From: Caulobacteraceae bacterium
Lineage (GTDB): Bacteria > Pseudomonadota > Alphaproteobacteria > Caulobacterales > Caulobacteraceae
Direction: 5' to 3'
Assembly: GCA_965283675.1 (NCBI GenBank)
Contig: CBDIPQ010000005.1
Location: 91,196-155,195 of the forward strand
Length of the DNA: 64,000 nt
The translations under genes and the position numbers were made by a program. Within the stretch, counting starts at the first letter, position 1; every line of letters begins with the position of its first letter. Shown in pieces: positions 2,283 through 29,615 of this stretch. Under the pieces are notes generated by a model. The model worked only from the letters and a program-made list of their open reading frames with translations, searched no databases and had not been told where the DNA came from.

Positions 2283-2291
2283 GGGGGCGTC

Positions 2292-9431: not shown

Positions 9432-9459
9432 CCCTCAAATCCCAGAAAAGGAGACTTCC

Positions 9460-9900: not shown

Positions 9901-9903
9901 ATC

Positions 9904-10320
9904 ATGGGCGGAAAACGCTCCCCGATCCGTAGTCACGCCCCCCGATGGCGGCCAGGCCGGTATCGCCCTCGGGGGCGGACACAACGTCGGGTTCGGCCGT
10001 TCGATCCCGTTCCAGATACCCTGATCGCCCTCGCCGGCAGCCTCGTCGCAGGCCTGGTCGTCTGCGTCATCGCCGTGCCGCTCGCATCGCTCTACCGGAT
10101 ACCGATGTATCTCCCCTACGGGGCGCTGATGCTTTTGTTGACCTTCATGACCTACCGTGTCGCCGGACGAGACAAGGCGGGACGGGTTATGGCGGGGGTG
10201 ATGGCGGTGGTCTGCGTTCTTGGGTCGGCTGCGCTCTTCCTCGGGCGCGACCAGATTGTCCTCGGGTCCCGTCACCACCACGATACCCCCGGCCCGGTCG
10301 CCGCAACGCGCGCGGACTGA
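9904..10320 (+). CDS. Small hypothetical membrane protein (about 3 TM, HHH tail); start uncertain
   Basis: Fills the gap between DUF305 and acyltransferase on the same strand; hydrophobic segments. Confidence 0.55.
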   Translation: MGGKRSPIRSHAPRWRPGRYRPRGRTQRRVRPFDPVPDTLIALAGSLVAGLVVCVIAVPLASLYRIPMYLPYGALMLLLTFMTYRVAGRDKAGRVMAGVMAVVCVLGSAALFLGRDQIVLGSRHHHDTPGPVAATRAD

Positions 10321-10322
10321 CG

Positions 10323-11444
10323 TTGGTCGAGGTCGCAGAACCCCGCAGGCCGGCCCGGATCGCGCGCGGCGGCTGGCTCGACGTTCTCCGGTTCGTCGCC
10401 GGCGCCCTGATCATCCTGTATCATTTTCGCGAGGCGGCTCCGACGCCGCTGGGCGAACTCCACCCGGTGTTTGACCGGGGGTTCCTGCTGACCAACTTCT
10501 TCATCATCGATTCCGGGTACATTCTGGCCCGGATCTATGGCGACGGCTTCGCCGCCCGCTCGCTCAACATCCTGGACTATATCCGCCAGCGCGTCCTCAG
10601 GGTCGTCCCGTCTCATCTCGTCGTGATCGGCGTACTTGCCGCAATGGTCGCCGTCGCCGCCGCGGTCGGCATTCGCCCGAGCAATCCCCAGTGGTTCGAC
10701 TGGGCGCAGCTCCCGGCGCAGGCGGCTCTGCTTCAGGCCTATGGCGTTCCGGGGGGACAGGGCTGGAACGCGCCGACCTGGACGCTCTCGGCCCTGCTCG
10801 GATGTTATCTCCTGTTGCCGTGGATATGCCGACTGATCTGGCGTAGGCGGCCCTGGCTGATCGTGGCGGGCGCCGTAGGGCTTCTGATCCTCGCGGACTG
10901 CGCCAGCCGCGCCTGGCTCGGCGATCCGATCTATCGCCTGCCTTTCAGCCACGGCTTTCTGCGAGCCCTGCCTCTGTTCCTGCTCGGTGTTGCGGCGGCG
11001 CTGTTCGGGGCGCGCGTCTATATCCCGCCGAGGCTCGCCGCGATGGCGGGGATCGTCGCCCTCGGCGTCCTCGTTTGCGCGCAGGTGATCGGGACCACCG
11101 CCTTGCTCTCGCTTCTGTTGCTGACCGTGATGATCTGGGCTGCGGGCGCGACGCCGGTCGCGAGACCCTCACGCCTGATCGAGCATCTCGGCCTGATGTC
11201 GTTCGCGATCTTCCTGACCAATGAAGTGGTCCGGATCCTCTGGTTCGGGGTCTTCGATGCGATCGGACAGGCAGGCTGGTCCTCAGATGTTCGCTGGGCG
11301 ATCTGGACTGCGGGTCTGGCGAGCGCCTTCATCGGAGCTGCAATCTTCCGGTACGCCTTCGACCGCCCTGTTCAGGCCCGTCTCAATCCGCCGCGAAGAC
11401 CACCGCAGGCGCCCGGCGTCAGCGCCGAGCGGCCCATCGCCTGA
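10323..11444 (+). CDS. Acyltransferase-3 (OafA/YrhL-like) membrane acyltransferase
   Basis: LDVLRFVAGALIILYHF, FFIIDSGYIL, RVLRVVP and WNAPTWTLS motifs; TTG start chosen, ORF-track start 9945 overlaps the upstream gene. Confidence 0.85.
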   Translation: MVEVAEPRRPARIARGGWLDVLRFVAGALIILYHFREAAPTPLGELHPVFDRGFLLTNFFIIDSGYILARIYGDGFAARSLNILDYIRQRVLRVVPSHLVVIGVLAAMVAVAAAVGIRPSNPQWFDWAQLPAQAALLQAYGVPGGQGWNAPTWTLSALLGCYLLLPWICRLIWRRRPWLIVAGAVGLLILADCASRAWLGDPIYRLPFSHGFLRALPLFLLGVAAALFGARVYIPPRLAAMAGIVALGVLVCAQVIGTTALLSLLLLTVMIWAAGATPVARPSRLIEHLGLMSFAIFLTNEVVRILWFGVFDAIGQAGWSSDVRWAIWTAGLASAFIGAAIFRYAFDRPVQARLNPPRRPPQAPGVSAERPIA

Positions 11445-11468
11445 GGGGCTCTCCCGGAAGGGTCGCCG

Positions 11469-11866
11469 TCAGGCGGGTTGGGGCGTTCTTGCGCGCTTGA
11501 GCCGGACAACATTGAGGAGGTGCGCGAGGACGAACTCAACCCGCCGACGATGGTGGCGATCGGAGCGGTCTCCACCGTCGGGCGTTCGGCCGCGCCCGCC
11601 ACAAGCGCCAGAATGGCGGCGATCGCGAGGCCCCGAAGCATCATGGGTGCGCCCACGCGAGGTGTGACGAGCGCGATCCAGGCCGCACAGGCCGCGACGC
11701 CGGCAAGCGTCCAGTGGAGCCACTCGCCGCCGGCGAGCCCCGCCAGGGGCAGAAGGCCAAGCACCCCCGCGCTCGACACACAATGGACGACGCAGAACAC
11801 GGAAAGACCGGCGCCGAACAGGTCGATTGGCCGGGAACGACCGGTGTCTGTGGGGGCGGGAGGCAT
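11469..11866 (-). CDS. MerC-domain membrane protein; frameshift at about 11533
   Basis: DLFGAGLSVFCVVHC and EWLHW motifs; one extra T joins ...VGGLS to FVLAHLLN..., the typical MerC-family C-terminal AH..N. Confidence 0.75.
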
Positions 11867-11871
11867 GTTGA

Positions 11872-11890
11872 GAATGTTATTGTGTAACGC
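11872..11890. promoter_or_regulatory. Candidate Zur/Fur-family box just upstream of the MerC-like gene
   Basis: GAATGTTAT-TGT-GTAACGC, an imperfect TGTTAT-N3-ATAACA inverted repeat in otherwise GC-rich DNA. Confidence 0.45.
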
Positions 11891-11969
11891 GCCGTTGATC
11901 CAGTGAATTGTGGTCGCGGACGCGCCTCGGCGATGATGATTTCGTGACGACCCGCGGATTGGTTTGCGG

Positions 11970-11983
11970 TACTATGGGGAGTA
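11970..11983. promoter_or_regulatory. Candidate RcnR/CsoR-family operator upstream of the MFS gene
   Basis: TACT-ATGGGG-AGTA, about 20 bp before the ATG at 12005; resembles the site at 23824. Confidence 0.6.
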
Positions 11984-12004
11984 TCTTTCCGATCGGGTCC
12001 GCAG

Positions 12005-13339
12005 ATGTTTTCTCCGCTGTCCAATCCCGCCTACCGCAGGCTCTTCATCGCCCAGGTGTCGGCTCTGCTCGGTACGGGCATGGCGACCGTCGCCCTCGGC
12101 CTGCTTGCCCATGATCTGGCCGGCGCCAACGCCGGAGAAATTCTCGGCGCAGCGCTCTCGATCAAGATGGTGGCCTATATCGCCGTCGCGCCGTTCGCGA
12201 GCGCCATCGCCGCGCGCTTGCCGCGCAAGACCCTCCTCGTGTCGCTGGACGTCGTCAGGGCGGGCGTCGCCATCACCCTGCCGTTCGTGGGCGCCGCCTG
12301 GCAAGTCTATGCCCTGATGGCCGTGCTCTACACGGCCTCCGCCGCCTTCACCCCGGCGTTCCAGGCCATGATCCCGGACCTTCTGGAGGACGAGGGGGAG
12401 TATACCAAGGCGCTCTCGCTCTCCCGCCTCGCGGCGGACCTCGAAAGCGTGGCCAGTCCGGTGGTCGCCGCCGTTCTGCTGGCCTTCATCAGCTACAACA
12501 ATCTGTTCGTGGGGACAGCTCTCGGCTTCGCGCTCTCGGCGGTCTTTGTCGTCCGGGCGATCCTGCCCCGGTCCGCCGGCGCAGCGCCCTTGCCCTTCAT
12601 ACGCCGGCTGACGGCTGGCGCCCGGCTGTTCGCCCTGACCCCGAGGCTGAGAGGCCTTCTGGCGGTCAGCCTGGCGACCGCCGCAGGCGGCGCGATGGTG
12701 TTCGTGAACACCGTCGTGCTTGTGCAGAGCAGCTTTGGCCTCTCTCAACAGGCGACGGCCTGGGCGCTCGCGGCCTTCGGCGCGGGGTCGATGACCGCCG
12801 CCCTGCTACTGCCGCGCGTCCTTCAAAGGATCCCCGACCGCTCCGCCATGATCGCGGGCGCTGGCGTCATGACGGGCGTGCTTCTGCTCGGCGCCTTTGT
12901 GGCGACGTCCTACCCCATCCTTTTGGGGCTCTGGATCGTCATGGGCTTCGGCTATTCGCTGACCATCACGCCGGCCGGTCGGGCGCTTCGACGGTCCTCG
13001 ACCTCGCAAGACCGCCCCTCGCTGTTCGCCGCCCAGTTCGCCCTGTCCCACGCCTGCTGGCTGATCGCCTATCCGGTCGCGGGGCTCGTCTCCGCCGAGG
13101 CGGATCCCCGCGCGGCCTTCCTTGTGCTCGCGGGCCTCTGCGCGGTGGGTGTGGTTCTCGCGCTCGTGGTCTGGCCCCGCTACGACCCGGCCAATCTCGC
13201 GCACTCGCACTCGGACCTGGACGCCGATGACCCCCACCTGTCCGAAGGCGAGCGTCCGGACCGGCAGTCCAGTTGGCACGCCCATCCGGTCGTGATCGAC
13301 GAGGCGCATCCGCGCTGGCCGCGACCGGACGAGAAATGA
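12005..13339 (+). CDS. MFS transporter (NreB-like, metal-island type) with His/Asp-rich C-terminal tail
   Basis: 12-TM MFS pattern, RLPRKTLLVSLDVVRA loop motif, tail HSHSDLDADDPHL...HAHPVVIDEAHPRWP. Confidence 0.85.
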   Translation: MFSPLSNPAYRRLFIAQVSALLGTGMATVALGLLAHDLAGANAGEILGAALSIKMVAYIAVAPFASAIAARLPRKTLLVSLDVVRAGVAITLPFVGAAWQVYALMAVLYTASAAFTPAFQAMIPDLLEDEGEYTKALSLSRLAADLESVASPVVAAVLLAFISYNNLFVGTALGFALSAVFVVRAILPRSAGAAPLPFIRRLTAGARLFALTPRLRGLLAVSLATAAGGAMVFVNTVVLVQSSFGLSQQATAWALAAFGAGSMTAALLLPRVLQRIPDRSAMIAGAGVMTGVLLLGAFVATSYPILLGLWIVMGFGYSLTITPAGRALRRSSTSQDRPSLFAAQFALSHACWLIAYPVAGLVSAEADPRAAFLVLAGLCAVGVVLALVVWPRYDPANLAHSHSDLDADDPHLSEGERPDRQSSWHAHPVVIDEAHPRWPRPDEK

Positions 13340-13377
13340 TGGCGGGGCGCGTCAGGGGGTTCCAGCGCCCCGCCATC
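13338..13377. terminator. Hairpin between convergent genes (possible bidirectional terminator)
   Basis: Perfect 13-bp stem GATGGCGGGGCGC / GCGCCCCGCCATC with 14-nt loop; no clear U-tract. Confidence 0.55.
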
Positions 13378-13414
13378 CGGTCGGCCGACTGGCGGCGGCC
13401 GACCCACAAGCGGG

Positions 13415-14083
13415 TCAGACCACCCGCTTGATCTCGGTGTAGGCGCCTTCGGTTTCGACCGTGATCGTCACGGTCTCTCCGGTCCGGTTGCGCCAGAACC
13501 AGCCATGGCTTCCGTCGAAGGCCGCCGTCAGCTCACCGGACTGCTGCAGATCGGTGCCCTTTCCGTAGCCGTGATAGCGGACGCCGGGGCGGTCAGCGTG
13601 GGTGTCGAAATTCACCGCACCTCCGCTGCTCCTCCAGGTGAAGCGGACCTTGGCGCCTTCGGCCATGTCCATCTTCAGCTCTGCGCCCTGGTTGGGGGCC
13701 AGTTCGATCACAGTCTCGTCCGAGCGGATGCCGGCTGCGGCGGCTTCAGCCGTGACCGGCCGGGCTGACGGCGCCACCGGACCGGTGGCTGCGGCCGGTG
13801 CTGCGGCAGGCGTCGGCGTGGAGGCGACGCCCGAGGTCTGGCCGGCGGCGGCGGCGTCCGCCGCAGCGTCAGCCTCGGCTTCCAGCGCGAGCTGGCGTTT
13901 CAGCTGGCCCATTTCCGTCAGGCCGAAGACCGAGCCGATACGCGTGGGATCGACGCCATATTCGGCTGGAAGGACCACAGTGACGAGGATCGCGCCGGCG
14001 ACGACGGCGGCGATGCCGGTGGATTTCAGCAACTCCTGCGTGGTGGGCAGTTCGGAGCGGGCGGGGCGGTTTGCGTTAAACAT
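13415..14083 (-). CDS. Conserved hypothetical membrane-anchored protein with periplasmic beta-rich domain
   Basis: TM plus LPAEYGVDPT motif, Ala/Pro linker, FDTHAD...YHGY and HGWFWRNR motifs; follows HupE/UreJ gene. Confidence 0.8.
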   Translation of the reverse strand: MFNANRPARSELPTTQELLKSTGIAAVVAGAILVTVVLPAEYGVDPTRIGSVFGLTEMGQLKRQLALEAEADAAADAAAAGQTSGVASTPTPAAAPAAATGPVAPSARPVTAEAAAAGIRSDETVIELAPNQGAELKMDMAEGAKVRFTWRSSGGAVNFDTHADRPGVRYHGYGKGTDLQQSGELTAAFDGSHGWFWRNRTGETVTITVETEGAYTEIKRVV

Positions 14084-14098
14084 GGAGGGGGGCTCCGA

Positions 14099-14830
14099 TC
14101 ACATGACGAAGAAGCCGACGAGCTGGTAGCCCGTCAGAATGAAGCCGAGGCACATGACCACGGCGTTGGTCAGGAAGGCGTGGTTCCAGAAGCTGTTCGA
14201 GCGGCGCCAGAAGCCCATCAGGATAAGGATGCCGCCGAGCGCCAGCAGCTGGCCGGCCTCGACGCCGATGTTGAAGGCGATCAGGTTGCCGATCAGGCCG
14301 TCCGGCGACATCTGGAAGTCCTGCAGCTTGGTCGCGAGACCGAAGCCGTGGAACAGACCGAAGATCAGGGTCGCCGCCTTGGTGGAGGGCTGGAAGCCGA
14401 ACCAGCGCTGGAAGGCGCCCATGTTGTCCAGGGATTTGTAGACGACGGACAGGCCGATGATGGCGTCCACGATGTAGCTGGAGACGCTGATGTCGGTCAG
14501 CACGCCCAGCAGCAGGGTTGAGGAGTGGCCGATGGCGAACAGCGTCACATAGATGCTGATGTCCTTCATCCTGTAGAGGAAGAAGATCACGCCGAAGAGG
14601 AACAGCAGGTGGTCGTATCCGGTGACCATGTGCTTGGCGCCCAGATAGACGAAAGGCCAGAACAGGAAGCCGGTGGTCTCCTGGATGTAGCCCTTGTCGC
14701 CCTCGGCGACGCCGTGGGCGAGGGCCTGACTGAGGGCGCCGTCCAGAAGCATGAAACTGAGGATCAGCAGAAGCGCCGTCCAGGGCGATCGGAGCCACGA
14801 CCAGGAGTCGCGGCGCAATGCAGAAGTCAT
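14099..14830 (-). CDS. HupE/UreJ-family membrane protein
   Basis: AHGV after signal-like segment; LGAKHMVTGYDHLLFL, FAIGHS, GLFHGFG and AFNIGVEAGQ motifs. Confidence 0.9.
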   Translation of the reverse strand: MTSALRRDSWSWLRSPWTALLLILSFMLLDGALSQALAHGVAEGDKGYIQETTGFLFWPFVYLGAKHMVTGYDHLLFLFGVIFFLYRMKDISIYVTLFAIGHSSTLLLGVLTDISVSSYIVDAIIGLSVVYKSLDNMGAFQRWFGFQPSTKAATLIFGLFHGFGLATKLQDFQMSPDGLIGNLIAFNIGVEAGQLLALGGILILMGFWRRSNSFWNHAFLTNAVVMCLGFILTGYQLVGFFVM

Positions 14831-15995
14831 GATTGACCTTTCGCGGAGTTGGGGGAGGGGGTGAGGAAAAGGCTGCGCACCAGGGTGCGGGCGGGCCGCT
14901 CCCAGAAGGCGTGCAGTGCGAAGGCGCTGGCCAAAGTCACGACCAGCAACAGAGCCGCTTCGGAAGCGGACATCCGGTAGGTGCTGTCGATGCCGCCCAG
15001 CATCGCCATCCCGTTCTTCCAGATGATCAGAAGCGGGAGATGGACGAGGTAGAGGGCATAGGAGGCTTCGCCCGCCTCCAGCAGCAGCGGATGGTTGAAG
15101 ACGCTGTCATCCTCGGCGCGGTCCCAGAGGGCCAGCGCGAGGACGACGACGCCGGAGGCCGCCACGATCAGGCGCTCGTCGGCGCTGATCGCCATCAGGC
15201 AAATCAGGGCGAAAAGCGATCCGATGGCGGCGAGCGTCGCCGTCCGGCGACCGCAACGGATGCGGCAACCGAGCTGGTAAAGGCCGATCCCGAACAGGAA
15301 TTCGGGAATGATCCTCAGCACGCCGAGCACGAGCTCGGCATGGGTGAGCTGGTCCTTGAAGATCCAGCGGTAGAGGCCGTCGATCACCAGGAACAGGCCC
15401 ACCGACAGACCGATCACCATCCAGGGGCGGCGGCCCGACCTGAGCCCGATGAAGGCGAACACAGGGAAGGCCAGATAGGCGGCCCATTCCGCGGACAGGG
15501 ACCAGGACGGGCCGTTCCACTCATTGGGAACGGTAGCCGGGAACCAGGCGTGGGTGAGGGCGAGGGCGGACGCGAACCCCGGCAGCGAGTAACTGTCGGC
15601 CGCGAACGGCTGACCCAGGGCGATAGCCGCCAGGACGATGAACGCCATCAGCACCATCATGGCGAGATGAGCCGGATAGATCCGGGCCAGCCGCGCGATG
15701 AGGAAGCGCTTGTGGTTGTAGGTCCCGTTCCGGATCTGACGCCCGTAGACGTGCGCCAGGATGAAACCCGACAGAATGAAGAAGAAATCGACCGCGAGGC
15801 GTGCGCGCTCGATCAGGGCGAGCCCCGTCCCGCCCTCGGGCGTCATGTTCAGCTGGTAGTGGAAGAGCACGACGCCGAGGGCGAGCCAGAACCGAATGCC
15901 GGTCAGGGCCGGCAAACGGTCCGGGAAGCCCGGCGCCGACGCGTTGGGGACCGCCTCGGCGCCGCCCCCGCTCTTCCTGCGAAGAGCGGAGTTCA

Positions 15996-15996
<1 letters not shown>
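14827..15996 (-). CDS. Acyltransferase-3 (OafA/YrhL-like) membrane acyltransferase
   Basis: LTGIRFWLALGVVLFHY, AVDFFFILSGFIL, RLARIYP, WNGPSWSLSAEW and GEASYALYLVH motifs; overlaps czcA stop (TGATG) and hupE start (ATGA). Confidence 0.9.
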
Positions 15997-19195
<3,199 letters not shown>

Positions 19196-20461
19196 CTAGT
19201 GGTCGTGGCTCGCGCCGGACTTGTCGATGTCCGCGCGAATGAGGAAGGCGCCGTCCACGACATAGGTCGTGTTTGGATCGATACCGCCCAGGACTTCGGT
19301 CCACTCGTCCGTCCGACGCCCAAGCTCGAGCATGCGGACCTCATAGGTGTTACCCACCTTGGCGTAGACGACGGTGAAGTCCCGGAAGGGCTGAAGCGCA
19401 CGGGTGCGGACCGCGAGCGGCACTTCCCCGGTTCCGACCTGGACCGTCCCGTCGACGCCCAGGCCCGGGCGCCAGACGCCGCCTTGGGCCGGCAGGGCGA
19501 CGTGGGCGACGAGCGTCTGACTGAGCACGTCATCAGCCGGGAGGATCGCCTCGATGGTGCCGGTGGTGGTGTTCTCGCCGGCGGTGCTGCGCACCTGGAC
19601 GCGCTGGCCGACCCGCACCCGTTCGGCGTCACGCGGATAGAGGAAGAACTCCGCATGCAGACGGGTCGGATCGCCGATCATCAGCATGGGCGTCCCGTTG
19701 CCCGTGATGGCGCCCGGATTGATGTTCTTGGCGGTGATGACGCCCGAGATCGGGGCGGTGACCGAATAGGTCTGCAGGCTTTCGCTCGACTCCACCCGGG
19801 CGACGACCTGGCCGCGGGACACCCGTTGACCGAGCTGGACGTTCAGCGAGACCACACGGCCGGGGTAGCGGGCGTGGACCTCGGCTTGGGCTTCCGGAGC
19901 CAGCTCCACCCGGCCGGTAAGGGGCAGGGCTTCCGCCAGCGTGGCCGGCCCGACCTGTTCGGTCGTGACCCCGCCCGCCCGTGCGGCCTCCGCCGTGATC
20001 TGCGTACGGCCCTCGTAGGACTGGTAGGTCCACCTCGAGGTCTTTCCGCCCCGCACCGCGTTCACCGCGACGTCGAACGAGTGGGGCTCGGTGACGACGC
20101 CGGGGCTGGCGAGGTAGGCGCCCTCGGGGGTGAAGGTGAACCGATCAACCTGTGGCCCCAGACGCGTCAGCGCCATGGTGAGCTGAACCTGCCGGGGATC
20201 GAGCGGCTTGTCGTTCAGATACGGATAGATCCGGAAGAGGGGCTCAGGGCCTTCTTCGTAGATGGTGACTTCCAGCGAGAAGTCGCCGTCGCGGAGGAGG
20301 CGGCCATTGTTCGGGCCACGCTCGTAGTCCCCGGCGGCCGCCGCTTCGGCGCCCTCGGCCTTCTCGGCGCGCTCACCGCCGCCGCCGCAGGCGGCGAGCA
20401 CCAGAGCAAGGCTGGTCAACGCCGCGCCGGAGGCGAGGCGCAGTGCATGTGTACGGGTCAT
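19196..20461 (-). CDS. czcB: Periplasmic adaptor (MFP) of second heavy-metal RND system
   Basis: Lipoprotein-like LAAC, GPNNGRLL, APISGVI motifs, ends KSGASHDH. Confidence 0.9.
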   Translation of the reverse strand: MTRTHALRLASGAALTSLALVLAACGGGGERAEKAEGAEAAAAGDYERGPNNGRLLRDGDFSLEVTIYEEGPEPLFRIYPYLNDKPLDPRQVQLTMALTRLGPQVDRFTFTPEGAYLASPGVVTEPHSFDVAVNAVRGGKTSRWTYQSYEGRTQITAEAARAGGVTTEQVGPATLAEALPLTGRVELAPEAQAEVHARYPGRVVSLNVQLGQRVSRGQVVARVESSESLQTYSVTAPISGVITAKNINPGAITGNGTPMLMIGDPTRLHAEFFLYPRDAERVRVGQRVQVRSTAGENTTTGTIEAILPADDVLSQTLVAHVALPAQGGVWRPGLGVDGTVQVGTGEVPLAVRTRALQPFRDFTVVYAKVGNTYEVRMLELGRRTDEWTEVLGGIDPNTTYVVDGAFLIRADIDKSGASHDH

Positions 20462-21777
20462 GGTTGGGTCTCCAGGCCGAGCAGGTCGGCATGCGCGCCT
20501 GTCAGACGGTCCAGTCTGGCGCGGTCGGTGTGGAAGGCTTGCAGGATGGACACGCGCCTCGCCCGGGCCTGCAGCAAGGCTGTCTGCGCGGACATCACGT
20601 CGTTGTAGGTGAAGCCGCCGCGCCCGAAGCCCTCGCGGACAAGGGTGACGGCACGCTCCGCCTGAGGCAGGGTCTCCTCGGCGATGCGGCGCGCTTCGCT
20701 GGCCTTGGCGGCCAGCTGCACCTGAAGCCTGAGGATTTCGCGCTCGCGCTCGATCTCGAAAGCGCGGCGATCGGCCTGGGCGGCTACGCCCTCGGCCTGG
20801 GCGCGGGCGATTGCGCCTTCATTGCGGTCGTAGCGTTGAAGCGGCATCGATCCGCCGAACACCAGGGCAACTTCGTTGTCCCAGATGTGGCGGACGCCGA
20901 GGCTCACCGTCGGGTCGGGCACGGCGCGCGCCTGTTCGACCCGCACCTGGGCGTCGGCGATCAGACGGCGGGCATCGAAAGCCGCGAGATCGATCTGCGC
21001 CACCGGACCGGCTTCCCGGCGAGAGGCGCTCGTGTCCTCGAAGGCATCAGCCCCGAGGGTGAACTCTGATCTGCCGAACCAGAATTTGGCGAGGTTGACC
21101 CGCGCCATACGCGCGCCGACCTCGGCCTGGTCGAAGTCGATCTGCGCCTGGGCGAGCTCGGCCTCCGCCCGGGCCCCTGCGAACAGGGGATCTCGTGCGG
21201 CGTTGACCCGTCGGGAGACTTCACTCTGGAAGGCCTCGGCCAGATTGAGCCGCTCCCTGGCGATTTCGAGCAAGGCCTCCGAAGCGAGCGCTTCGGCCCA
21301 CGCCGTCTGGACCAGCTCGAGCCGGTCGAGCTGCGCGGCCCTGGCGTCGGCGAGAAGCAGATCTCCCTCGGCCCGGGCGAGCGCCGTGCGGGCCGGACGA
21401 TCGCCGCCCCGTTCCAGACGTTGCTCGTACGTCAGCGTGGTCTCGGTTCGCCCGAGAATATCGCCGCCGCCGAGCGTCGGCAGGTTCTCGACCATCAGTC
21501 CGACGTTCGGATTGGGTCGGACATCGGCCTGCCGCACGCCGGCTCCAGCGGCGCGACGACGAGCTTCGACACCGGCGAGCGCCGGGTCTGACGCGGCGGA
21601 AAGACTGAGGGCTTCGCGCAAGCTGAGTTGCGGGTAGCCGTTCACGTCGGCGGGGACCGGCGCCGCTTGGGCGAACACCGGGGCAGGGGCGAGCGACGCC
21701 CCAAGGGCGAGCGCGAGCGCAGACACGGCTGCGGCGCGCACCCGCCATCCGGCAGCGCCGGATGCAGGTAGTTTCAA
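20458..21777 (-). CDS. czcC: TolC-family outer membrane factor of second heavy-metal RND system
   Basis: Signal peptide ending VFAQ, VRQADVRPNP, MPLQRYDRNEG motifs; TTG start approximate. Confidence 0.88.
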   Translation of the reverse strand: MKLPASGAAGWRVRAAAVSALALALGASLAPAPVFAQAAPVPADVNGYPQLSLREALSLSAASDPALAGVEARRRAAGAGVRQADVRPNPNVGLMVENLPTLGGGDILGRTETTLTYEQRLERGGDRPARTALARAEGDLLLADARAAQLDRLELVQTAWAEALASEALLEIARERLNLAEAFQSEVSRRVNAARDPLFAGARAEAELAQAQIDFDQAEVGARMARVNLAKFWFGRSEFTLGADAFEDTSASRREAGPVAQIDLAAFDARRLIADAQVRVEQARAVPDPTVSLGVRHIWDNEVALVFGGSMPLQRYDRNEGAIARAQAEGVAAQADRRAFEIEREREILRLQVQLAAKASEARRIAEETLPQAERAVTLVREGFGRGGFTYNDVMSAQTALLQARARRVSILQAFHTDRARLDRLTGAHADLLGLETQP

Positions 21778-21838
21778 GGAATTTCTCCAACAGGACGCGC
21801 ACGGCCCGGAGGCCGCGCAGGATCAGCTTTTCAGGCGA

Positions 21839-22312
21839 TCAGGCGTTCTGTTTAGGAGGGTCGAGCGGGCTTTCCGGACGCGTTCCCGCCAAAGGCGGAG
21901 TCCGGGCCGGGTTGAGCGCGGGCGCAAGTCCGCTGGAGGGGGAGTTCGGCTGAGGCAGGCCTGCGAGCGCGATGTGCACGTCACCGCCGCCGCCATGGTG
22001 ATGGTGCGGCAGCACCGGCATTTCGCTTTGGTCGGCGGTGTCGATCGCCGTGTCTGCGGCGGCAGAGGCTTCAGCGTCGACCTCGTGGGCGTGATCGTGC
22101 CCGTCGTCGTGATGATCATGGTCAGCCGCGGAATCGCTGAAAGCGACGCCGGGGAACTGGAGAGCATGTTCTATTCGATGTTGACCGTCACGTACCGCAA
22201 AGCCTTGCAGCGTGACCATAAGGGTCACGGCCAAGCCGATGCAGATCTGGCGGACAAGTCGCGACAGAGAGTACCCCGTACTCCCCGGACTATCTCGACA
22301 CCCCTGATTCAA
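21839..22312 (-). CDS. His-rich small protein upstream of czcC (CzcI/DUF2946-like architecture); start uncertain
   Basis: Hydrophobic N-terminal segment, DHDHHDDGHDHAH and HHHH tracts, Pro-rich end PLDPPK. Confidence 0.65.
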   Translation of the reverse strand: MNQGCRDSPGSTGYSLSRLVRQICIGLAVTLMVTLQGFAVRDGQHRIEHALQFPGVAFSDSAADHDHHDDGHDHAHEVDAEASAAADTAIDTADQSEMPVLPHHHHGGGGDVHIALAGLPQPNSPSSGLAPALNPARTPPLAGTRPESPLDPPKQNA

Positions 22313-22334
22313 GCAACATCAAAAGTGTCGCAGT

Positions 22335-23279
22335 TCAGGCGGGGAGAGGCTCGGAGGGTTCGATTTCGATAGTGATATGCTTGAGCTCGTGCACCGGGAC
22401 CAGCCGCGCTCGAAGCGCCTCCAAGGTCGCGCTGGAGGTCGCGACACTGATGATGGCGGCGTGAGCGTCCGGCCCAACCCGCCAGATGTGCAGATCGCGG
22501 ATACGGGCATCGCCTGGCGTCTCGATCGCCTCGCGGGTTTCATCGGCGACGTGGGTGTCGGTTCGGTCCAGCAGGACGGCAGCCGTATCGCGCAGGAGAC
22601 CCCATGACCATTTCGCGATTACCGCTGCGCCGACCAGGCCCATGATCGGGTCCAGCCATGTCCATCCGAGATAGTGACCTGACAGGAGCGCGACGATCGC
22701 AAGGACCGATGTCAGGGCATCGGCTAGGACATGGAGATACGCGGAACGCAGATTGTTGTCGCCGCCGTGCCCGTGGTCGTGGTGGCCATGATCGTGATGA
22801 TCATGCTGGTGGCTGTGGTGATGCCCTCCCGAGAGCAGAAGAGCGCTCACGACATTCACGACAAGGCCGATGACGGCGACAATCGCCGCTTCGCCGAACA
22901 AGACCGTAGTCGGCTCGAACAGACGTCGGATGGATTCCACGCCGATGCCAATGGCGAAAAGGCCCAGAACGAGCGCGGATGCAAACCCTGCCAGATCGCC
23001 GACCTTGCCGGTGCCGAAGCTGTATCGGGGGTCGTTCGCGTGACGGCGTGCGTAGCTGTAGGCTGCGGCCGCGACCCCAAGGGCTCCGGCGTGGGTGAGC
23101 ATATGTATGCCGTCCGCCAGCAAGGCCATTGATCCCGTCAGCACGCCGGCGACGATCTCTCCGACCATCATCACTGCGGTCAGGACGACCACGATCAATG
23201 TGCGGCGGGCGTTCTCGTCATGATTGGCGGCCAGAAAGACATGATCATGGGCCGGTGAAGCGGCAGGCTGGATGGTCAT
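22335..23279 (-). CDS. dmeF: CDF-family Co/Ni efflux transporter DmeF
   Basis: HDHVFL...ENARRT, GSMALLADGIHM, His-rich loop, NLRSAYLHVLADALTS. Confidence 0.9.
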   Translation of the reverse strand: MTIQPAASPAHDHVFLAANHDENARRTLIVVVLTAVMMVGEIVAGVLTGSMALLADGIHMLTHAGALGVAAAAYSYARRHANDPRYSFGTGKVGDLAGFASALVLGLFAIGIGVESIRRLFEPTTVLFGEAAIVAVIGLVVNVVSALLLSGGHHHSHQHDHHDHGHHDHGHGGDNNLRSAYLHVLADALTSVLAIVALLSGHYLGWTWLDPIMGLVGAAVIAKWSWGLLRDTAAVLLDRTDTHVADETREAIETPGDARIRDLHIWRVGPDAHAAIISVATSSATLEALRARLVPVHELKHITIEIEPSEPLPA

Positions 23280-23548
23280 TTATAGCGTCCGATAATGGAT
23301 ATGAGCTCGTCGGCGCCCTTGCGACGCGCGGCTTCATCAAGATGAGGCGCAGCGACATGGTGCTCGAGATGCTGAAGGATCAGCGCTTCGACCAGGCCGC
23401 CAAGAGCGCCGCGCACGGCGGCGGCCTGCTGGAGGACGGCGATGCAATCGACATCATCATTGATGGCGCGCTCGAGAGCGCTGACCTGCCCATTGATGCG
23501 GCGGACCCTGGCCATAAGTTTGGGCTTGTCAGCGGCGATATGGGCCAT
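23276..23548 (-). CDS. rcnR: RcnR/FrmR/CsoR-family metal-sensing repressor (DmeR-like)
   Basis: MAH...KLMARVRRINGQV, DCIAVLQQAAAVRGAL, HLEHH; ATGA-coupled to dmeF. Confidence 0.88.
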   Translation of the reverse strand: MAHIAADKPKLMARVRRINGQVSALERAINDDVDCIAVLQQAAAVRGALGGLVEALILQHLEHHVAAPHLDEAARRKGADELISIIGRYK

Positions 23549-23583
23549 GGTGGAATCCTTCTGAGACGACGTGTTGGGTCTCA

Positions 23584-23784
23584 TTAGTCACTCGCCCCGG
23601 CCTTCGCACCCAAGGCGGTCATTCGCCGGGGGAGCTCCCGCTCGATGGCCTTGCGGCGGAAGGGCGACAGCTTGCACCATTGAGCCACTTCCGGACGCGT
23701 TCGGCCGCACCCCACGCACCAGCCGGTCGCGGAATTGAAGATGCAGATGTCTATGCAGGGTGTCTTCACCGATCGGCCCGTCAC
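23584..23784 (-). CDS. DUF1289-family small Cys-rich protein
   Basis: TPCIDIC...GWCVGCGRTRPEVAQW motif; start GTG 23784 (TTG 23799 possible). Confidence 0.85.
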   Translation of the reverse strand: MTGRSVKTPCIDICIFNSATGWCVGCGRTRPEVAQWCKLSPFRRKAIERELPRRMTALGAKAGASD

Positions 23785-23823
23785 CGAGCCGTGGCGCAAG
23801 CCGTCACGAACCGGTTGGGCTGA

Positions 23824-23842
23824 TATACTCCCTACCAGTATA
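23824..23842. promoter_or_regulatory. Candidate RcnR-type operator heading the DUF1289-rcnR-dmeF-czcCBA operon
   Basis: Palindrome TATACT-N7-AGTATA; minus strand reads TACT-GGTAGGG-AGTA, close to the known RcnR site TACT-G6-N-AGTA. Confidence 0.7.
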
Positions 23843-23932
23843 ACATCAAGGTTTGCGTGAGTGATGTCGCTGTGCCGCCATCGCTGGCGGCGTCGTGCCT
23901 TCAGAGGGGGAAAGGCTGGGTTTCGAGCCGCA

Positions 23933-25291
23933 TCAATCCTCGTCGCCCGCGACCGCCAGGACGGGCTGAACCCATCCGTCGTCTCCGAAGGCCGCGAGAA
24001 CGCCCTCGAAGTGGTTCAGGTGGCGGACCTCGTTCAGCCCGTGAACGAAACGGTTTCGGGCGTCGATCGACGGTTGGCGCCCGGCGTTTCGAAGAAGACT
24101 GAGTAGCAACCCGCTTGTCGCCGCGGCGGCATAATTCTGACCGTTGCCGACTATGGCGTCGAGCACCTGATCGAGCTCGGCCTGCGTCAGAGAACCGGTG
24201 TAGGGAGCGATGAAGTCACTGAAGTTGGCTTCCGAGCCCCTGAAGCTGCCCGAGCCCGCATAGCGCGCGACAGCGGCCGGCCACAGGTCAGCAAGCGGAG
24301 TGGCAGCGATCGTGCGGGCGAAGGTCTCGCGGTCCAGTCGCGGTATCGCGGCAAGGAGCGGCCCGGAACCGCTCGAATGTGATCCCCATCATGATCCGGA
24401 CATCGGCGACATTTGCGGGGTCGAGGTTGTTGACGGTCTCCTGCAGGGCGGTCTGCGTCGCCTCCTGGATCAGCGGCCAGAAGTTCGGGAAGGCGGCGAT
24501 GAAGGCGATGGCCCGCGGCCGATCAAGGGCGCCAGATTGTCGAGGAGCTGCACAATGGAAGGTGCGAGTTCGGGCCACGCCGCAGGGGTCCGCTCGCGGA
24601 CCGCCACGAGGGCCGAAACGATTTTGCCGCGCACCCCGTCGAGATGAGGGGGAATGCCTTTGAGCAACGACTTGGCGAGAACAGTGCCGAAGTTGCGGAT
24701 GTTCTGGGACCGGACGCGGGCGAGGTAGCGCTGCTCGACGTAGTCGAGAATCCTGGCGTGATCGCTCGGGAATCCGGGCGACTGAACATCGACATCGAAG
24801 ACCTCGAAGATCGCTCGGCCCTGAAGAGGTTCCTGGGCCAGCACGAGATCGACGGCGTTGACCAGATGCATTCGCACCAGTTCTGGCGTGGGCTCGAACA
24901 GCAGGGCTTCGGCCGAGAAGGCAGGATGGGCGCACAGATGGCGGTCCTCGCGCAGTCTCTCCAGCTGTCGCCGGGCGATCTGGCTGATAGCCTGGGTGTT
25001 GTCCGCGGCGTCCTCGATGATCCGGCCCTCCAGCTGGAGGAGCTGGCGAATGTCACTGATCGCGGTCGCATTATCCCAGGATTGAAGGAAGGTCGTCGCG
25101 GCGGCATCGCCCATCGCGCCTAGCTCCCGGTACTTTGCGATCAGATCATAGGCGAGCGCGACCCATGCCGCCGTCAGCGATGCGCGAAGGGCAGCTTTGT
25201 AGGCCTTCACCGCGTCGAGGAAGTAGATGCGTGACTGGGCGTTGCGCACCTTGGTCAGCAGGATGTCGAGATCTACGAAGCTGGAGTCCAC
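23933..25291 (-). CDS. Hypothetical protein of about 450 aa with HEPN-like Rx4H motif; two apparent frameshifts (about 24527 and 24360)
   Basis: Three consecutive protein-like segments (ORFs 24470-25357, 24288-24935, and the frame ending 23933) join into one helical protein; EDRHLCAHP motif. Confidence 0.65.
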
Positions 25292-25367
25292 AGGGCGTAC
25301 CGAGGAAATGAGTGGGGGGGGCGAAGGTCGGGCAGGCGACGTGGCCCGTCCATCCAACCGTGAGGGT

Positions 25368-26429
25368 CTACTCGTAGGGGAGCTCTCCGAAGAGGCCTAT
25401 CATGAGATCTCCCTTCAGCTCGCGGAAAGGAATCTCGACAAAATGGTCGGGGTGTCTGGGCTTGGCCCGGCCATCCCCAGGACCGTTCTTTGTGTGGCCG
25501 CGAACCTGCTCGCCGCTTTCCTTGACATAGGGAAGGACAACGAGCCTACCGTGGTTGGTCGAGAGGATCGTGCCCTCGCGCCATAGCGTCGACCCATCCT
25601 CACCCTTGTCGCTGGTGGTCGCCTTGACCGTCCAGCCGAGTTGACCGTCCGGCTCGTACCAGAACACGATCCCATTGCTGACCAGAACATGCTCGCCACG
25701 GGCCAGAGCCTCGGCGAGGAGGCGTTGAACGCTGGCGAGCTGAAGAAGCTGATTGGCCCGCGGCAGCAGTTCGGCACGGATTTTGGCCTTCACCTGACCC
25801 CAGTGCTGATCGTGGTGAAACTTGAAGCCGTTGGCGATCCGGGCGCGCATGGCTTTCTCCGCCGATTTCTCGCCGGCGGGATAGGGTTTGCTCCAGACGT
25901 CGTCAGCGTTGCGATACAGAACGACCTGCCGTCCGCGGCCATCGAGAAGAGCCATCCAGAGATAGGGGTAGGTTTGTAGCTCTTGCGCCAACGCTTCCCG
26001 ATAGGGCTCGGCCTCAGTGTGCAGCTTGATTTGATCGATCGGGATCCGGGGCGTGTCGGCGTGGCGTCGGATCGCCTCGGAAAGCATCAGGGCTTCCTCA
26101 TCCGCCAGACGTTGCCGCGACTGAAGCGCCTTGCGGACCTTCAGGGTGAGAGAGGTCTTCTCTGTTGCGTCCATCTGCCTCGCCGCGAGCGCCGCCGCCA
26201 GCGAGGGATTCAAAGCCTCGGCTGCGGATACTGCGGCCTTCCGATCCGGATGGACGTCCATTCTGACCCATCCCTCCTCGGACGGGATTCGTCGGTCTCG
26301 CCAGCGAACGCCGCCGTCCTCGGTCTCGACCAGCTCCACCATGAACCAGCGCTCATGCAACGGGCGATAGCTCGGCCATATCGCGAGGATAGGATCATGA
26401 TCCCTCCGACTGTCTCCCCACTTGATCAT
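25368..26429 (-). CDS. Hypothetical protein (353 aa)
   Basis: GGAGG RBS before ATG 26429; protein-like composition; C-terminal PYVKESGEQVRGHTKNGP motif. Confidence 0.75.
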   Translation of the reverse strand: MIKWGDSRRDHDPILAIWPSYRPLHERWFMVELVETEDGGVRWRDRRIPSEEGWVRMDVHPDRKAAVSAAEALNPSLAAALAARQMDATEKTSLTLKVRKALQSRQRLADEEALMLSEAIRRHADTPRIPIDQIKLHTEAEPYREALAQELQTYPYLWMALLDGRGRQVVLYRNADDVWSKPYPAGEKSAEKAMRARIANGFKFHHDQHWGQVKAKIRAELLPRANQLLQLASVQRLLAEALARGEHVLVSNGIVFWYEPDGQLGWTVKATTSDKGEDGSTLWREGTILSTNHGRLVVLPYVKESGEQVRGHTKNGPGDGRAKPRHPDHFVEIPFRELKGDLMIGLFGELPYE

Positions 26430-26596
26430 GCATGCCTCCCGACTCGGAGCTGATCTGATCGACAGGCGCATATTGACGCAATGCCTGATTGAAGCCTGGC
26501 TGTGCGCAACAAAACTTGAGATGGCGCCGCGTGGCACTGGCATGGGGCGAGGGGACTTCCCGAACTCAACATCCCCAATCGATGGAGCGTGAGATC

Positions 26597-27073
26597 ATGG
26601 TGAAGGTTGTCGGGTTTCCTGCCCCCGTAGATATCTCCGGCCTGAAGCCCGGGTCAGCGTTCCAGGTCGGTGATACAGTTCCGCCGCTCTATGGGATCAC
26701 GGTGAAGGCGGGTGACCTGGTGACGGCCATCCTTCTGGGTCAGGTGAAGGGCCAGGCGGCTTCCCCTGGCTATCTGCAGAATCAGCACCTCCCCGGCGAG
26801 TGCTACGCCGTCGACGCCGAGCTCGTGATCGGCAGAACCGCGAAGACGGAGCGTCGCGAAGCGCTGACGCATGGCGCGCTCGTCTTCGACGGCGAGAACA
26901 AGCCGTTCCTCGTCATCGAGCAAGCCGATCCCTTCCCACGCCTGTACCTGTCGATGGAGACAGGCGAGGCAAAGACGGACGGACCAGCGGGCATGCTCCA
27001 AATCTACGGCAACTGGGTGCTGAGGCTTGAGGGGGAAGGGAAGACGCTGACCGAGCTCACACTCAATGGCTAG
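26597..27073 (+). CDS. Hypothetical protein (158 aa, beta-rich)
   Basis: ATG 26597 after GGAG; stop TAG formed from the TA target plus first IS base. Confidence 0.7.
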   Translation: MVKVVGFPAPVDISGLKPGSAFQVGDTVPPLYGITVKAGDLVTAILLGQVKGQAASPGYLQNQHLPGECYAVDAELVIGRTAKTERREALTHGALVFDGENKPFLVIEQADPFPRLYLSMETGEAKTDGPAGMLQIYGNWVLRLEGEGKTLTELTLNG

Positions 27074-27900
27074 GCTCAGGACCCATTGATGTGAGGCGTT
27101 CGGTCTGATTCAGGCTCCTGAGGAGTCTGGATATGAGCGACCTGTATTGGCTGACGGACGAGCAGATGGCTCGGCTGGAGCCCTTCTTCCCAAAGAGCCA
27201 CGGCAAGCCGCGCGTTGACGACCGCCGGGTGTTGAGCGGGATCATCTTCGTCAACCGCAACGGCCTCCGCTGGCGAGATGCGCCGGCGGCCTACGGGCCG
27301 CACAAGACCCTCTACAACCGCTGGAAGCGATGGAGTGAGGCTGGCGTCTTCATCCGGATGATGGAGGGCCTCTCCGGGGCTCAGACCGAACGCCGCACGG
27401 TCATGATCGACGCGACCTATCTCAAGGCGCACCGCACGGCTTCGAGCCTGCGGGTAAAAAAGGGGGTCTCGGGCGACTGATCGGACGCACGAAAGGCGGC
27501 ATGAACACCAAGCTGCACGCCGTGACCGATGCGAACGGGCGGCCCATCAGCCTCTTCATGACAGCGGGTCAGGTCAGCGACTACATCGGCGCTGCCGCTC
27601 TCCTGGACAGCCTGCCACGCGCCCAGTGGTTGTTGGGCGACAGGGGCTACGACGCCGACTGGTTCCGGGACGCCTTGCAGGCCAAGGGGATCACGCCGTG
27701 CATCCCAGGCCGCAAAACCCGCACCGAACCCATCCGCTACGACAAGCGACGCTACAAGCGGCGAAACCGGATCGAAATCATGTTTGGACGCCTGAAAGAC
27801 TGGCGCCGGGTCGCCACCCGCTACGATCGCTGTCCGACGGTCTTCCTGTCCGCCATCGCCCTCGCCGCGACCGTCCTGTTCTGGCTATAAGTCCTGAGCC
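27073..27900 (+). mobile_element. IS5-family (IS427-group) insertion sequence, 828 bp
   Basis: Perfect 10-bp TIRs GGCTCAGGAC / GTCCTGAGCC, TA direct repeats at 27071-27072 and 27901-27902, split DDE transposase. Confidence 0.95.
27133..27890 (+). CDS. IS5-family transposase, orfA 27133-27480 plus orfB joined by programmed -1 frameshift
   Basis: GKPRVDDRRVLSGI, WRDAP..YGPHKT, IDATYLKAHR, DRGYDAD, RYDRC motifs; slippery A AAA AAG at 27456-27462. Confidence 0.93.
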
Positions 27901-28509
27901 TAAGAAGGTCTACACGCCCTCCGAGGATCTACTGGACGGCCTCAAACAGGATGTCCTCTACCTGTTGCTCACGATCCTGGCGCATCGCGAGAAGCAACGC
28001 CTCCCGAACCTGGGAAAGATGTCTGGGAAGACCTCGTGCTTGAGCTCGCCCTGTTGGAAAGCGGGACGAGGGATATCATCGCGCGACTTACAGCGCTGGA
28101 CGACGACGGTTCCGGGTCACGGTCGTTCCCGAATGCTCTCGCTGCCATGAATCGCGAGGGACTAGCGGCCAGGAAGGCAGAAGAACTGAAGGCCCACGTC
28201 AAGGCGTACCGGGCGGCGATCAACGATCTCAAGGTCAACCATCGCAACAGCTACATCAGCCATGTGCAGGAGTTCGCCGAAGTTCTCCCGCGCGTCCTTG
28301 ATAAGCCCGTGCGTTTCGAGATGGCAGCGAGCCTCTCCGTCAATGTTCTCGACGCCTTGATGGGGCGACAGGTGGAGTATCGGTTCCGGGTCGGCTCTCA
28401 GGAACCCGAGCTTGATCTGCGCGCGCGTCTTTCCGGTCCGTAGCCTAACCACGAAGTCTTGGGTCCTGACGTACAGTGCGATGCCAAGCCTTCCTGCGGA
28501 GGCTGCGAC

Positions 28510-28529
28510 CTTACACAAATGCTTACACA
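28510..28529. repeat. Direct repeat CTTACACA x2 near the att site (candidate integrase arm-type sites)
   Basis: CTTACACA at 28510-28517 and 28522-28529, about 60 bp inside the tRNA-derived core. Confidence 0.45.
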
Positions 28530-28587
28530 GTCGGCTGGCTTGTGGTAGATTCTCACGAAGTATCAGTGGTTTGATGCTGGCGTGTGT

Positions 28588-28641
28588 GACTTAAAATCCG
28601 GGTCCTCTGGAGTGTCGGTTCGAGTCCGACCGCCCGCACCA
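28588..28641 (+). tRNA. 3' half only of tRNA-Leu(TAA), not an intact gene; probable att core
   Basis: Anticodon loop CT-TAA-AA, long variable arm, T-arm GTCGG-TTCGAGT-CCGAC, acceptor strand CGCCCGC-A-CCA; no complementary GCGGGCG or D-arm upstream. Confidence 0.88.
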
Positions 28642-28649: not shown

Positions 28650-29615
28650 TCAGCCGACCAGCGCTTGCCGGTCGCGTTCCAGAAAGGCGACGATGTCGGC
28701 CGGCGTCGCTCTCGGCGTGCGGGTGTGCGGATAGGCGTGCGCGGTGCGCGGCTTCCGGTCGAACCACAGTTCATCGACCACCTCCGACGGACGGGTCGCG
28801 GCCAGCCAGTCGATGGTGTCGGCGCCCTCGTCGTCGTTGCGCAGGATCGGAGCCAGGATCTTGCGGAATTTGGGCAGGGAGGTCTTCACCCCCGCCGTGT
28901 CGGCCCAGCCCGGATGGACCGCGTAGGTCCTGGCCCCAATGTCGGCGAAGGCCGCGCGCCAGTGCTCGGTCAGCGCCACCTGGGCCCGCTTGTGGGCCGC
29001 GTAGGCGGCGAAGCCGTTGAACTTCTCTTCCGGGATGTTCAGCATCGATTTGGTCAGCGGCAGATTGTAGAGGCCGCCCGAGACCACATTGATGATCGCC
29101 GCTTCCGAGGCCAACAGGCCCTCGGCGTGCATCTGTTCCGTCAGGATGTAGTGACCCAGCAGATTGGTCGCGTAGGAGGTCTCCACCCCCTCGGCCGTCG
29201 CCTGGTAGGACCGCATCAGCAGGCCGACATTGTTGACCAGAACGTCGAACTTCAGGGCGGCGATCTCCGGCCGGCGGGCCAGGTCGGACACCGCCCGCAT
29301 GGATGACAGGTCGCAGACGACCGGAACGATCCGTCCGGACGCCCCCGCCGCCGCGGCCTGAAGCGCATCCAGCGCGGCGACATTGCGCCCGACCGCGTAC
29401 ACCGTGGCCCCTTTGCGCACGGCGCGCAGCGCCGCCGCCCGCCCCAGCCCGCCGGTCGCGCCGGTGACCAGCCAGGTCTGTCCGGAATAGTCCGCGCGAA
29501 CCGGCTTGAACGGCAGGCCGCGGGCGATGTAGCCGACGCGGGTGAATGACGGCGCGAAGCGTGCGTAGAAATTCACAGACTTCATAAGGGCTTGCAGGAA
29601 GGGCAGCTCAGCCAT
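28650..29615 (-). CDS. SDR-family oxidoreductase (DHRS12-like)
   Basis: TGATGGLG, NNVG, YAAHK, VHPGWADT motifs. Confidence 0.9.
   Translation of the reverse strand: MAELPFLQALMKSVNFYARFAPSFTRVGYIARGLPFKPVRADYSGQTWLVTGATGGLGRAAALRAVRKGATVYAVGRNVAALDALQAAAAGASGRIVPVVCDLSSMRAVSDLARRPEIAALKFDVLVNNVGLLMRSYQATAEGVETSYATNLLGHYILTEQMHAEGLLASEAAIINVVSGGLYNLPLTKSMLNIPEEKFNGFAAYAAHKRAQVALTEHWRAAFADIGARTYAVHPGWADTAGVKTSLPKFRKILAPILRNDDEGADTIDWLAATRPSEVVDELWFDRKPRTAHAYPHTRTPRATPADIVAFLERDRQALVG

Follow-up and report, generated by a model that had tools for sequence, protein, structure and literature searches.

A stretch of 54 nt in a Brevundimonas genome, at positions 28588-28641 of the 64-kb window (the whole stretch of DNA that we analysed), is the 3′ half of a chromosomal tRNA-Leu(UAA) gene, and it very probably owes its position to a 65.8-kb element that was inserted by a tyrosine integrase into the anticodon loop of this gene, splitting it and bringing along an intron-bearing spare gene for the same tRNA. 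The window corresponds to positions 91196-155195 of contig C5 (window coordinate = C5 coordinate minus 91195), and the source genome is a 91% complete assembly of 3.6 Mb with 69% GC. In the proposed mechanism, the integrase would recombine the attP of the element with the anticodon loop of the chromosomal tRNA-Leu(UAA), and because attP and attB share only about 9-12 nt, the gene would be cut in two and rebuilt at neither junction. The 5′ half would stay behind the peptidase gene, at attL beside the integrase gene, and the 3′ half would move to attR, 65.8 kb away. The loss would be offset by a complete tRNA-Leu(UAA) gene of the element itself, equipped with promoter-like sequence, from which a 211-nt intron would have to splice itself out to give a normal tRNA. 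The element and the parts around attR are as follows (window coordinates unless C5 is given).

C5:54024-119791: integrative element, 65,768 bp, counting one copy of the core
1..28587: right-hand 28.6 kb of the element (the left 37 kb lies off the window)
28508..28587, plus strand: arm of attR on the element side (P arm of the deduced attP), conserved next to the 3′ half in 12 genomes
28510..28529, plus strand: direct pair of CTTACACA octamers at a distance of 12 nt, putative integrase sites of the arm type
28588..28596, plus strand: common core GACTTAAAA of attL and attR, 9 nt, in the anticodon loop
28588..28641, plus strand: displaced 3′ half of the chromosomal tRNA-Leu(UAA) gene, with stems that pair perfectly with the 5′ half at C5:53986-54023
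28650..29615, minus strand: short-chain dehydrogenase (SDR) gene, Pfam adh_short, the first gene outside the element

The 54-nt piece, GACTTAAAATCCGGGTCCTCTGGAGTGTCGGTTCGAGTCCGACCGCCCGCACCA, opens with the last 2 nt of the 5′ strand of the anticodon stem and continues with the loop CTTAAAA (anticodon TAA), the 3′ stem strand TCCGG and a long variable arm, followed by a T arm with a perfect stem of 5 bp (GTCGG/CCGAC), the acceptor 3′ strand CGCCCGC, the discriminator A and CCA. It shares 93% identity with the same part of the intact tRNA-Leu(TAA) in the congener G058, and when it was joined to the 5′ half from C5:53986-54023, ARAGORN folded the resulting 83 nt into a canonical tRNA-Leu(taa) in which every stem is paired. 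The resemblance is far above chance, and the piece is a true tRNA-Leu(UAA) 3′ half, as an earlier note on this DNA, which described a 3′ half of tRNA-Leu(TAA) without its 5′ half, had correctly read from the structure.

No whole tRNA was found in the 64-kb window by ARAGORN, or by Rfam at the gathering score. At a relaxed threshold, RF00005 matched positions 28576-28638 (22.6 bits, E = 0.033), with GCTGGCG at 28576-28582 standing in for the 5′ acceptor strand. Such an end-to-end match, with GCTGGCG and CGCCCGC pairing in 6/7 positions, is in line with a pseudogene that decayed locally through an internal deletion of about 20 nt (the D arm and the 5′ strand of the anticodon stem), leaving as its 5′ remnant GCTGGCGTG, which agrees with the 5′ end of a Leu tRNA in 8/9 positions. 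We nevertheless regard local decay as extremely improbable. The GCTGGCGTGTGT stretch is part of a constant arm that travels with the element, whereas the 3′ half varies with the host, and a real 5′ half with perfectly matching stems lies beside the integrase gene, 65.8 kb away.

This 5′ half, GCGGGCGTGGCGAAATGGTAGACGCACCGGACTTAAAA, is co-oriented with the 3′ half and lies to its left; an M28-type peptidase gene ends 14 nt ahead of it, and the integrase gene starts about 100 nt after it. It is fused to non-tRNA sequence bearing a second CTTACACA pair. The two junctions read ...CCGGACTTAAAACCCACT... (attL) and ...GTGTGACTTAAAATCCGGG... (attR), and the direct repeat that they share is the 9-nt GACTTAAAA, which extends to 12 nt with one mismatch (GACTTAAAA[Y]CC). 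The location of this core inside the anticodon loop supports the proposal of the earlier note that a tyrosine integrase crossed over near that loop, with the piece as the scar at attR. The note had also predicted an intact tRNA-Leu to the left of the window and, as a check, a search for a second co-oriented copy of the piece. Neither materialized: ARAGORN found no intact tRNA at attL or attR, attL holding the 5′ half only, and neither BLAST nor a 13-mer scan found a second copy in the genome. Since the true repeat is 9 nt, the sole match to the 54-nt piece in these searches was the tRNA-Leu(CAA) on contig C1. The note would have given up its island if a co-oriented intact copy were missing upstream; that copy is indeed missing, but the island reading stands on better evidence.

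In classical tRNA islands and prophages (P4-like and L5-like integrases), attP carries a 3′ segment of the tRNA, and the gene is rebuilt. Sublocation classes of tRNA-targeting integration were reportedly defined by Williams in 2002. The element resembles classical islands in that the integrase adjoins the tRNA junction, the crossover lies in the anticodon loop and a displaced fragment is found at the far end; unlike theirs, its deduced attP carries no tRNA 3′ segment. A classical island whose attP brought the 54-nt 3′ part, rebuilding an intact tRNA-Leu and leaving long repeats, would fit the orientation of the piece, the drop in GC and an integrase gene that lies to the left. However, this explanation has next to no chance of being correct: it is refuted by the sequence of attL, which consists of the 5′ half and non-tRNA sequence and in which ARAGORN called no tRNA in any of 9 genomes, and it is contradicted by the shared core of only 9 nt and by the lack of a second copy of the piece or of any shared 13-mer on C5.

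The element side of the junction could be recognized from its conservation in other species. The attR arm (~80 nt) contains two copies of CTTACACA, then a hairpin, GTATCA-N6-TGATGC, and then GCTGGCGTGTGT, and it is kept in 12 Brevundimonas genomes, each time adjoining a tRNA-Leu(UAA) 3′ half. These 3′ halves fall into three host-like types, and their right flanks are unrelated. Because the arm is constant, the 3′ half is of host type and the right flank is variable, the left side belongs to the element and the crossover lies at GACTTAAAA. On the other side, nine aligned attL sites share the order of host 5′ half, conserved arm and integrase gene with an identical junction, and ARAGORN called no tRNA in any of the nine. 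A strict attL pattern is present in 16/271 Brevundimonas species genomes, and both ends were found on one contig in G044 (~84 kb apart) and in G057 (~81 kb apart). Carriers include cultured strains, such as Brevundimonas huaxiensis 090558 and B. balnearis NCAIM B.02621. Two copies of CTTACACA were observed in the 64-kb window, against 0.15 expected, and the attL arm has another such pair, in the same orientation, immediately ahead of the integrase gene (locus L157 276-294), so that the two arms together account for 4 of the 7 copies found genome-wide. The pairs are candidate arm-type integrase sites, and the attP that can be deduced from both junctions is predicted to have the order arm ...GCTGGCGTGTGT-GACTTAAAA-CCCACTACCG..., followed by the integrase gene. 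As a side observation, the GCTGGCGTG stretch (28576-28584) lies within the element arm and is kept in all aligned arms; its likeness to the first 9 nt of a Leu tRNA (8/9 positions) and its pairing with the 3′ acceptor strand (6/7 positions) may be due to chance, or may be a relic of a former attP that carried a 5′ half.

These junctions also bear on the idea that position 28588 is no integrase junction at all, and that the 3′ half reached its place through an unrelated rearrangement (an inversion, a translocation or an IS-mediated event) or was imported with foreign DNA from a former host. The right flank is found beside tRNA-Leu in no congener, and IS110- and IS5-family elements occur inside the region, both of which are compatible with such an origin. 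We consider it very unlikely all the same: the two junctions coincide with one 9-nt core inside the anticodon loop, each end has a conserved arm with a CTTACACA pair, the junction pair recurs in many genomes, and the two halves are co-oriented and complementary.

Integration into an intact tRNA-Leu(UAA), our preferred explanation, is further illustrated by the left flank. More than 100 congeners have a whole, uninterrupted tRNA contiguous with the peptidase gene (positions 1-433 of a joined-flank query), and in G058 the order is peptidase, tRNA, modABC. On the right, homology to the congeners G017, G004, and G009 (77-83% at the nucleotide level) starts at about window position 28646, right after CCA. 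The left neighbour of the SDR block differs among these three genomes, and the right flank is a synteny breakpoint, because the SDR gene sits elsewhere in every congener that has it. The downstream side of the tRNA-Leu(UAA) is, as judged from these alignments, a recurrent and general synteny breakpoint in the genus. In the comparison with island-free relatives that the earlier note had suggested, a complete empty site was not found via the right flank, via G058, or with the joined flanks over the whole genus; conservation is limited to the left flank together with the whole tRNA. The block at 28642-31200 (SDR, DapB-like, SnoaL, SDR) lies beside tRNA-Leu in 0 of 270 congeners.

The integrase and the spare tRNA gene lie off the window, close to attL.

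C5:54121-55425, co-oriented with the tRNA halves: tyrosine integrase, 434 aa, PF00589 at 24.9-27.1 bits
C5:55471-55767: spare tRNA-Leu(UAA) gene, with exon 1 at 55471-55505, the intron at 55506-55716 and exon 2 at 55717-55767

That an integrase gene would be found to the left of the window had been anticipated in the earlier note, and a PF00589 scan of C5 located it 37 kb before the window start, at a dip in GC. The PF00589 score lies at or below the curated cut-off, and phmmer against PDB sequences and an NCBIfam search gave no match for this protein. An alignment of 22 homologues shows no variation at R272, K304, R368, or Y400. With an AlphaFold model (mean pLDDT 75.6) as the query, the top 48 PDB matches of Foldseek were all tyrosine recombinases, with E-values down to 3.5e-8, and the fold matches include Tn1549 Int, XerA, lambda Int, Cre, and XerH. 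The identity of the integrase was settled by this fold search. The N-terminal beta domain of the model would be compatible with arm-site binding.

The same integrase family was found once in each of the other carrier genomes, and in contigs representing one genome per species we found at least 576 relatives, which come from Caulobacterales, Sphingomonadales, some Gammaproteobacteria, and MAGs labelled Planctomycetes and Armatimonadota. Among the best 80 of these at least 576 loci, 69 have a tRNA-Leu 5′ half about 100-150 nt before the integrase gene, 22 of them of the UAA type and 47 of the CAA type. CAA-type loci have an intact tRNA-Leu(CAA) downstream of the integrase gene, at a distance of about 90-100 nt, and in six of the seven cases compared, this spare has the loop ATTCAAAA (U32), as opposed to ACTCAAAA (C32) in the host target. 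In the spare of elements that target tRNA-Leu(UAA), the crossover core is interrupted by the intron, between CTT and AAAA. It is conceivable, though we think it unlikely, that a difference in DNA sequence between spare and target is maintained because it stops the element's own integrase and sister integrases from using the spare as attB. If this were true, species that already have an intron in their chromosomal tRNA-Leu(UAA) would be immune to this element family.

Several relatives deserve mention in their own right. In Sphingomonadales relatives (L106 1341-1405 and 2840-2924; likewise L095, L113, L124, L128, and L101), the host tRNA-Leu(CAA) is split, and the spare tRNA-Leu(CAA) is nearly identical between elements of different genera. 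The integrase homologue in a Nevskia MAG (L142 1501-2766) has an in-frame stop, and the neighbouring intron-bearing spare looks intact.

The spare tRNA-Leu(UAA) gene begins 45 nt after the integrase stop codon, is preceded by the promoter-like sequence TTGGCG-17-TATAGA, and consists of GCGGGCGTGGCGAAACTGGTAGACGCAACGGACTT, then 211 nt, then AAAATCCGTCGGGCTTTGCCCATGCCGGTTCGACCCCGGCCGCCCGCACCA. With introns allowed, ARAGORN identified it as a tRNA-Leu(taa) gene with a 211-nt intron after U34, and the spliced form, which folds canonically, is predicted to be an 86-nt tRNA-Leu(UAA) with the variable arm GGGCTTTGCCC. At its 5′ side the intron junction lies between CTT and AAGC, and at its 3′ side between TATG and AAAATCC. 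RF00028 (Intron_gpI) aligned over its full model with 38.4 bits (E = 1.1e-7), the gathering score being 50, and reached 32-40 bits at the matching place in eight further elements. For comparison, scores of 18-20 bits were used together with exon context by Williams (2020; bioRxiv 10.1101/2020.01.27.920355), and the intron described here scores above these. We compared 21 copies of the intron from Brevundimonas, Phenylobacterium, the Nevskia MAG, and another alphaproteobacterial MAG. All 21 have a U.G at the 5′ splice site, a terminal G is present in all aligned copies, and compensatory changes were seen in 28 of the 86 predicted pairs. Together, these features suggest that the insert is a group I-type intron, with a position and characteristics matching class Leu.3Ug. 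It is predicted to splice.

Introns of class Leu.3Ug lie between U34 and A35, have a U.G in P1 and a terminal G, possess an IC3-like core, are ~200 nt long and contain no ORF (Williams, 2020; bioRxiv 10.1101/2020.01.27.920355). The intron of the spare likewise lies between U34 and A35, with a U.G at the 5′ splice site, a terminal G, a similar length and no ORF, and its core appears to be IC3-like. What sets it apart is its location in an element-borne spare whose partner integrase acts on the very loop that the intron interrupts, a context that is not covered in that preprint. In our literature search, we came across no report of an integrase that occurs together with an intron-split spare tRNA-Leu(UAA).

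Across the genus, an uninterrupted tRNA-Leu(TAA) is present in 224 of 271 Brevundimonas genomes and an intron-bearing tRNA-Leu(UAA) gene in 34 of 271, counts that refer to species genomes and not to independent events. No uninterrupted tRNA-Leu(TAA) was found in 31 of the 34 intron genomes. Among the 16 genomes with attL, the intron gene lies 1.5-5.1 kb from attL in 15, 13 are without an uninterrupted gene, and none is without both kinds. At least 13 Brevundimonas species have the intron-split copy of the element as the only tRNA-Leu(UAA) gene found, and to read the rare codon UUA they would require a mobile element as well as RNA self-splicing. As standard tRNA finders miss the halves as well as the spare, such genomes seem to be without tRNA-Leu(UAA), and such islands without a partner repeat.

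The source genome is a case in point, where ARAGORN identified 50 tRNAs and no tRNA-Leu(TAA). We had considered that the UUA decoder was lost from this high-GC genome, an idea that was dropped once the intron-split gene was found. The TTA codon has a frequency of 0.19 per 1000 codons, and it still occurs in about 170 of 2821 confident ORFs (~6%); therefore, a UUA decoder is still needed, a role for which the spare may be required. The tRNA set appears to be incomplete for assembly reasons, because tRNA-Val(TAC) is also missing from the source assembly, and absences need to be read with care; with this gene absent and the assembly 91% complete, the source strain may have a further uninterrupted tRNA-Leu(UAA).

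Some Brevundimonas species depart from the common arrangement. In G219, G169, G214, and G230 (L079, L082), the spare lies 5.1 kb and not 1.5 kb from attL, and a protein-coding insert of ~3.6 kb is found between the integrase gene and the spare. About 19 species possess an intron-bearing tRNA-Leu(UAA) without the attL pattern (L161-L166, L168, L169), including G019, where the intron gene (L160 2921-3217, corresponding to G019:C1 ~1,966,620-1,966,916) occupies the native locus, downstream of the peptidase gene and separated from it by 245 nt as compared with 14 nt; it has the same upstream cassette, TTGGCG-17-TATAxA, as the element-borne copy. No integrase, arms, or halves were found in the neighbourhood of the G019 intron gene, and the idea that such native-locus intron genes are element fossils was rejected as unsupported, given that arms and halves are missing there. 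The G057 element contains a second tRNA-Leu(TAA)-like gene (L063 15519-15601, minus strand; G057:C1 ~37819-37901), 5.4 kb from attR, which is probably decaying, with mismatches in the anticodon and T stems. We also considered, and rejected, the 5.4-kb interval as a small complete element, because it has no integrase, the tRNA stems are mismatched, and the true attL is 81 kb away.

Two known systems come close to the proposed mode of integration. [quoted passage not shown] The element shares with these phages (PMC10865867) the short core in a tRNA gene, the lack of rebuilding and the element-borne tRNA of the same isotype. Unlike them, it is not a phage: alongside a relaxase, MobC, ArdC, and a ParB-like protein, it has cargo genes for metal resistance and defence. 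It differs further in its alphaproteobacterial host, its target, tRNA-Leu(UAA), and its spare, which follows right after the integrase gene and bears a group I-type intron. Disrupt-and-replace integration, shown experimentally for actinophages in 2024, would also occur in large non-phage islands of Alphaproteobacteria.

The second system comprises ICEPmu1 and ICEMh1 of Pasteurellaceae, large resistance-carrying elements that insert into tRNA-Leu(CAA), with a direct repeat of 11-13 bp that corresponds to the anticodon loop (GATTCAAAATC) and with one disrupted and one full-length tRNA-Leu copy at their borders (PMC6861422). Resistance cargo, insertion into the anticodon loop of a tRNA-Leu, a short repeat, and the combination of a disrupted and a full-length copy are thus common to these elements and the one described here. 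By contrast, ICEPmu1 and ICEMh1 are conjugative and have XerCD-like recombinases and no reported intron, whereas the present element targets tRNA-Leu(UAA), showed no T4SS and has its full-length copy in the interior, in the form of an intron-split gene.

The element accounts for all metal-resistance genes of the window, which would be cargo of a single element that bears an integrase and a relaxase. The earlier note had proposed that the whole metal-resistance region was mobile, and window positions 1-28587, including both czcCBA clusters, do lie within C5:54024-119791. The metal cargo of the element consists of two RND efflux clusters, three CDF transporters, and a truncated P-type ATPase. 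The main features in the window part of the element are given below.

28..5516, plus strand: metal-efflux RND cluster 1 (OMF, MFP, RND pump), with OEP, HlyD_D23, and ACR_tran at 914.9 bits
5513-6753: CDF transporter and methyltransferase after RND cluster 1, Pfam Cation_efflux
16112..21777, minus strand: metal-efflux RND cluster 2 (RND pump, MFP, OMF), with ACR_tran at 1006.1 bits, HlyD_D23, and OEP
22335..23799, minus strand: CDF transporter, RcnR/CsoR-type repressor, and DUF1289 protein, with Cation_efflux, Trns_repr_metal, and DUF1289
27133..27890, plus strand: IS4/IS5-family transposase in two ORFs, an IS inside the element, with DUF4096 and DDE_Tnp_1

The GC content is 62-63% in window positions 22000-29000, and the low-GC tail of the element starts at the genes at 22335..23799. 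Off the window, the element encodes a ParB-like protein, dnaE2/imuA, SRAP, DUF736, ArdC, MobC, a relaxase of the MobA/VirD2 type, Cap4-nuclease/AAA defence genes, and MerR; in addition, the Pfam and NCBIfam families DUF3800, HEPN/NTase, DUF305, and HupE/UreJ are present on the element. The relaxase scores 52.6 bits with PF03432 and 87.6 bits with a MobP1-like model whose cut-off is 200. No VirB4, T4CP, or other T4SS families were found among the scanned element ORFs, several of which match no family, and the Pfam and NCBIfam scans of ~50 element ORFs found no capsid, tail, terminase, or lysis families. With its integrase, relaxase, MobC, ArdC, and ParB-like protein, the element looks like an integrative mobilizable element, and its gene content suggests that it may still be able to excise and to be mobilised via the relaxase and MobC.

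A few minor observations concern individual genes of the element. The ORF at C5:59478-60650 reads, by eye, as an IS110-family transposase. At C5:72116-77731, dnaE2 and an imuA-like gene occur together with a gap of 724 nt where imuB would be expected, and this mutagenesis cassette may be incomplete. The P-type ATPase ORF (window 6928-8505) ends at 525 aa, matches only the E1-E2 domain and has a tail that resembles out-of-frame sequence, and it probably represents a frameshift or a pseudogene.
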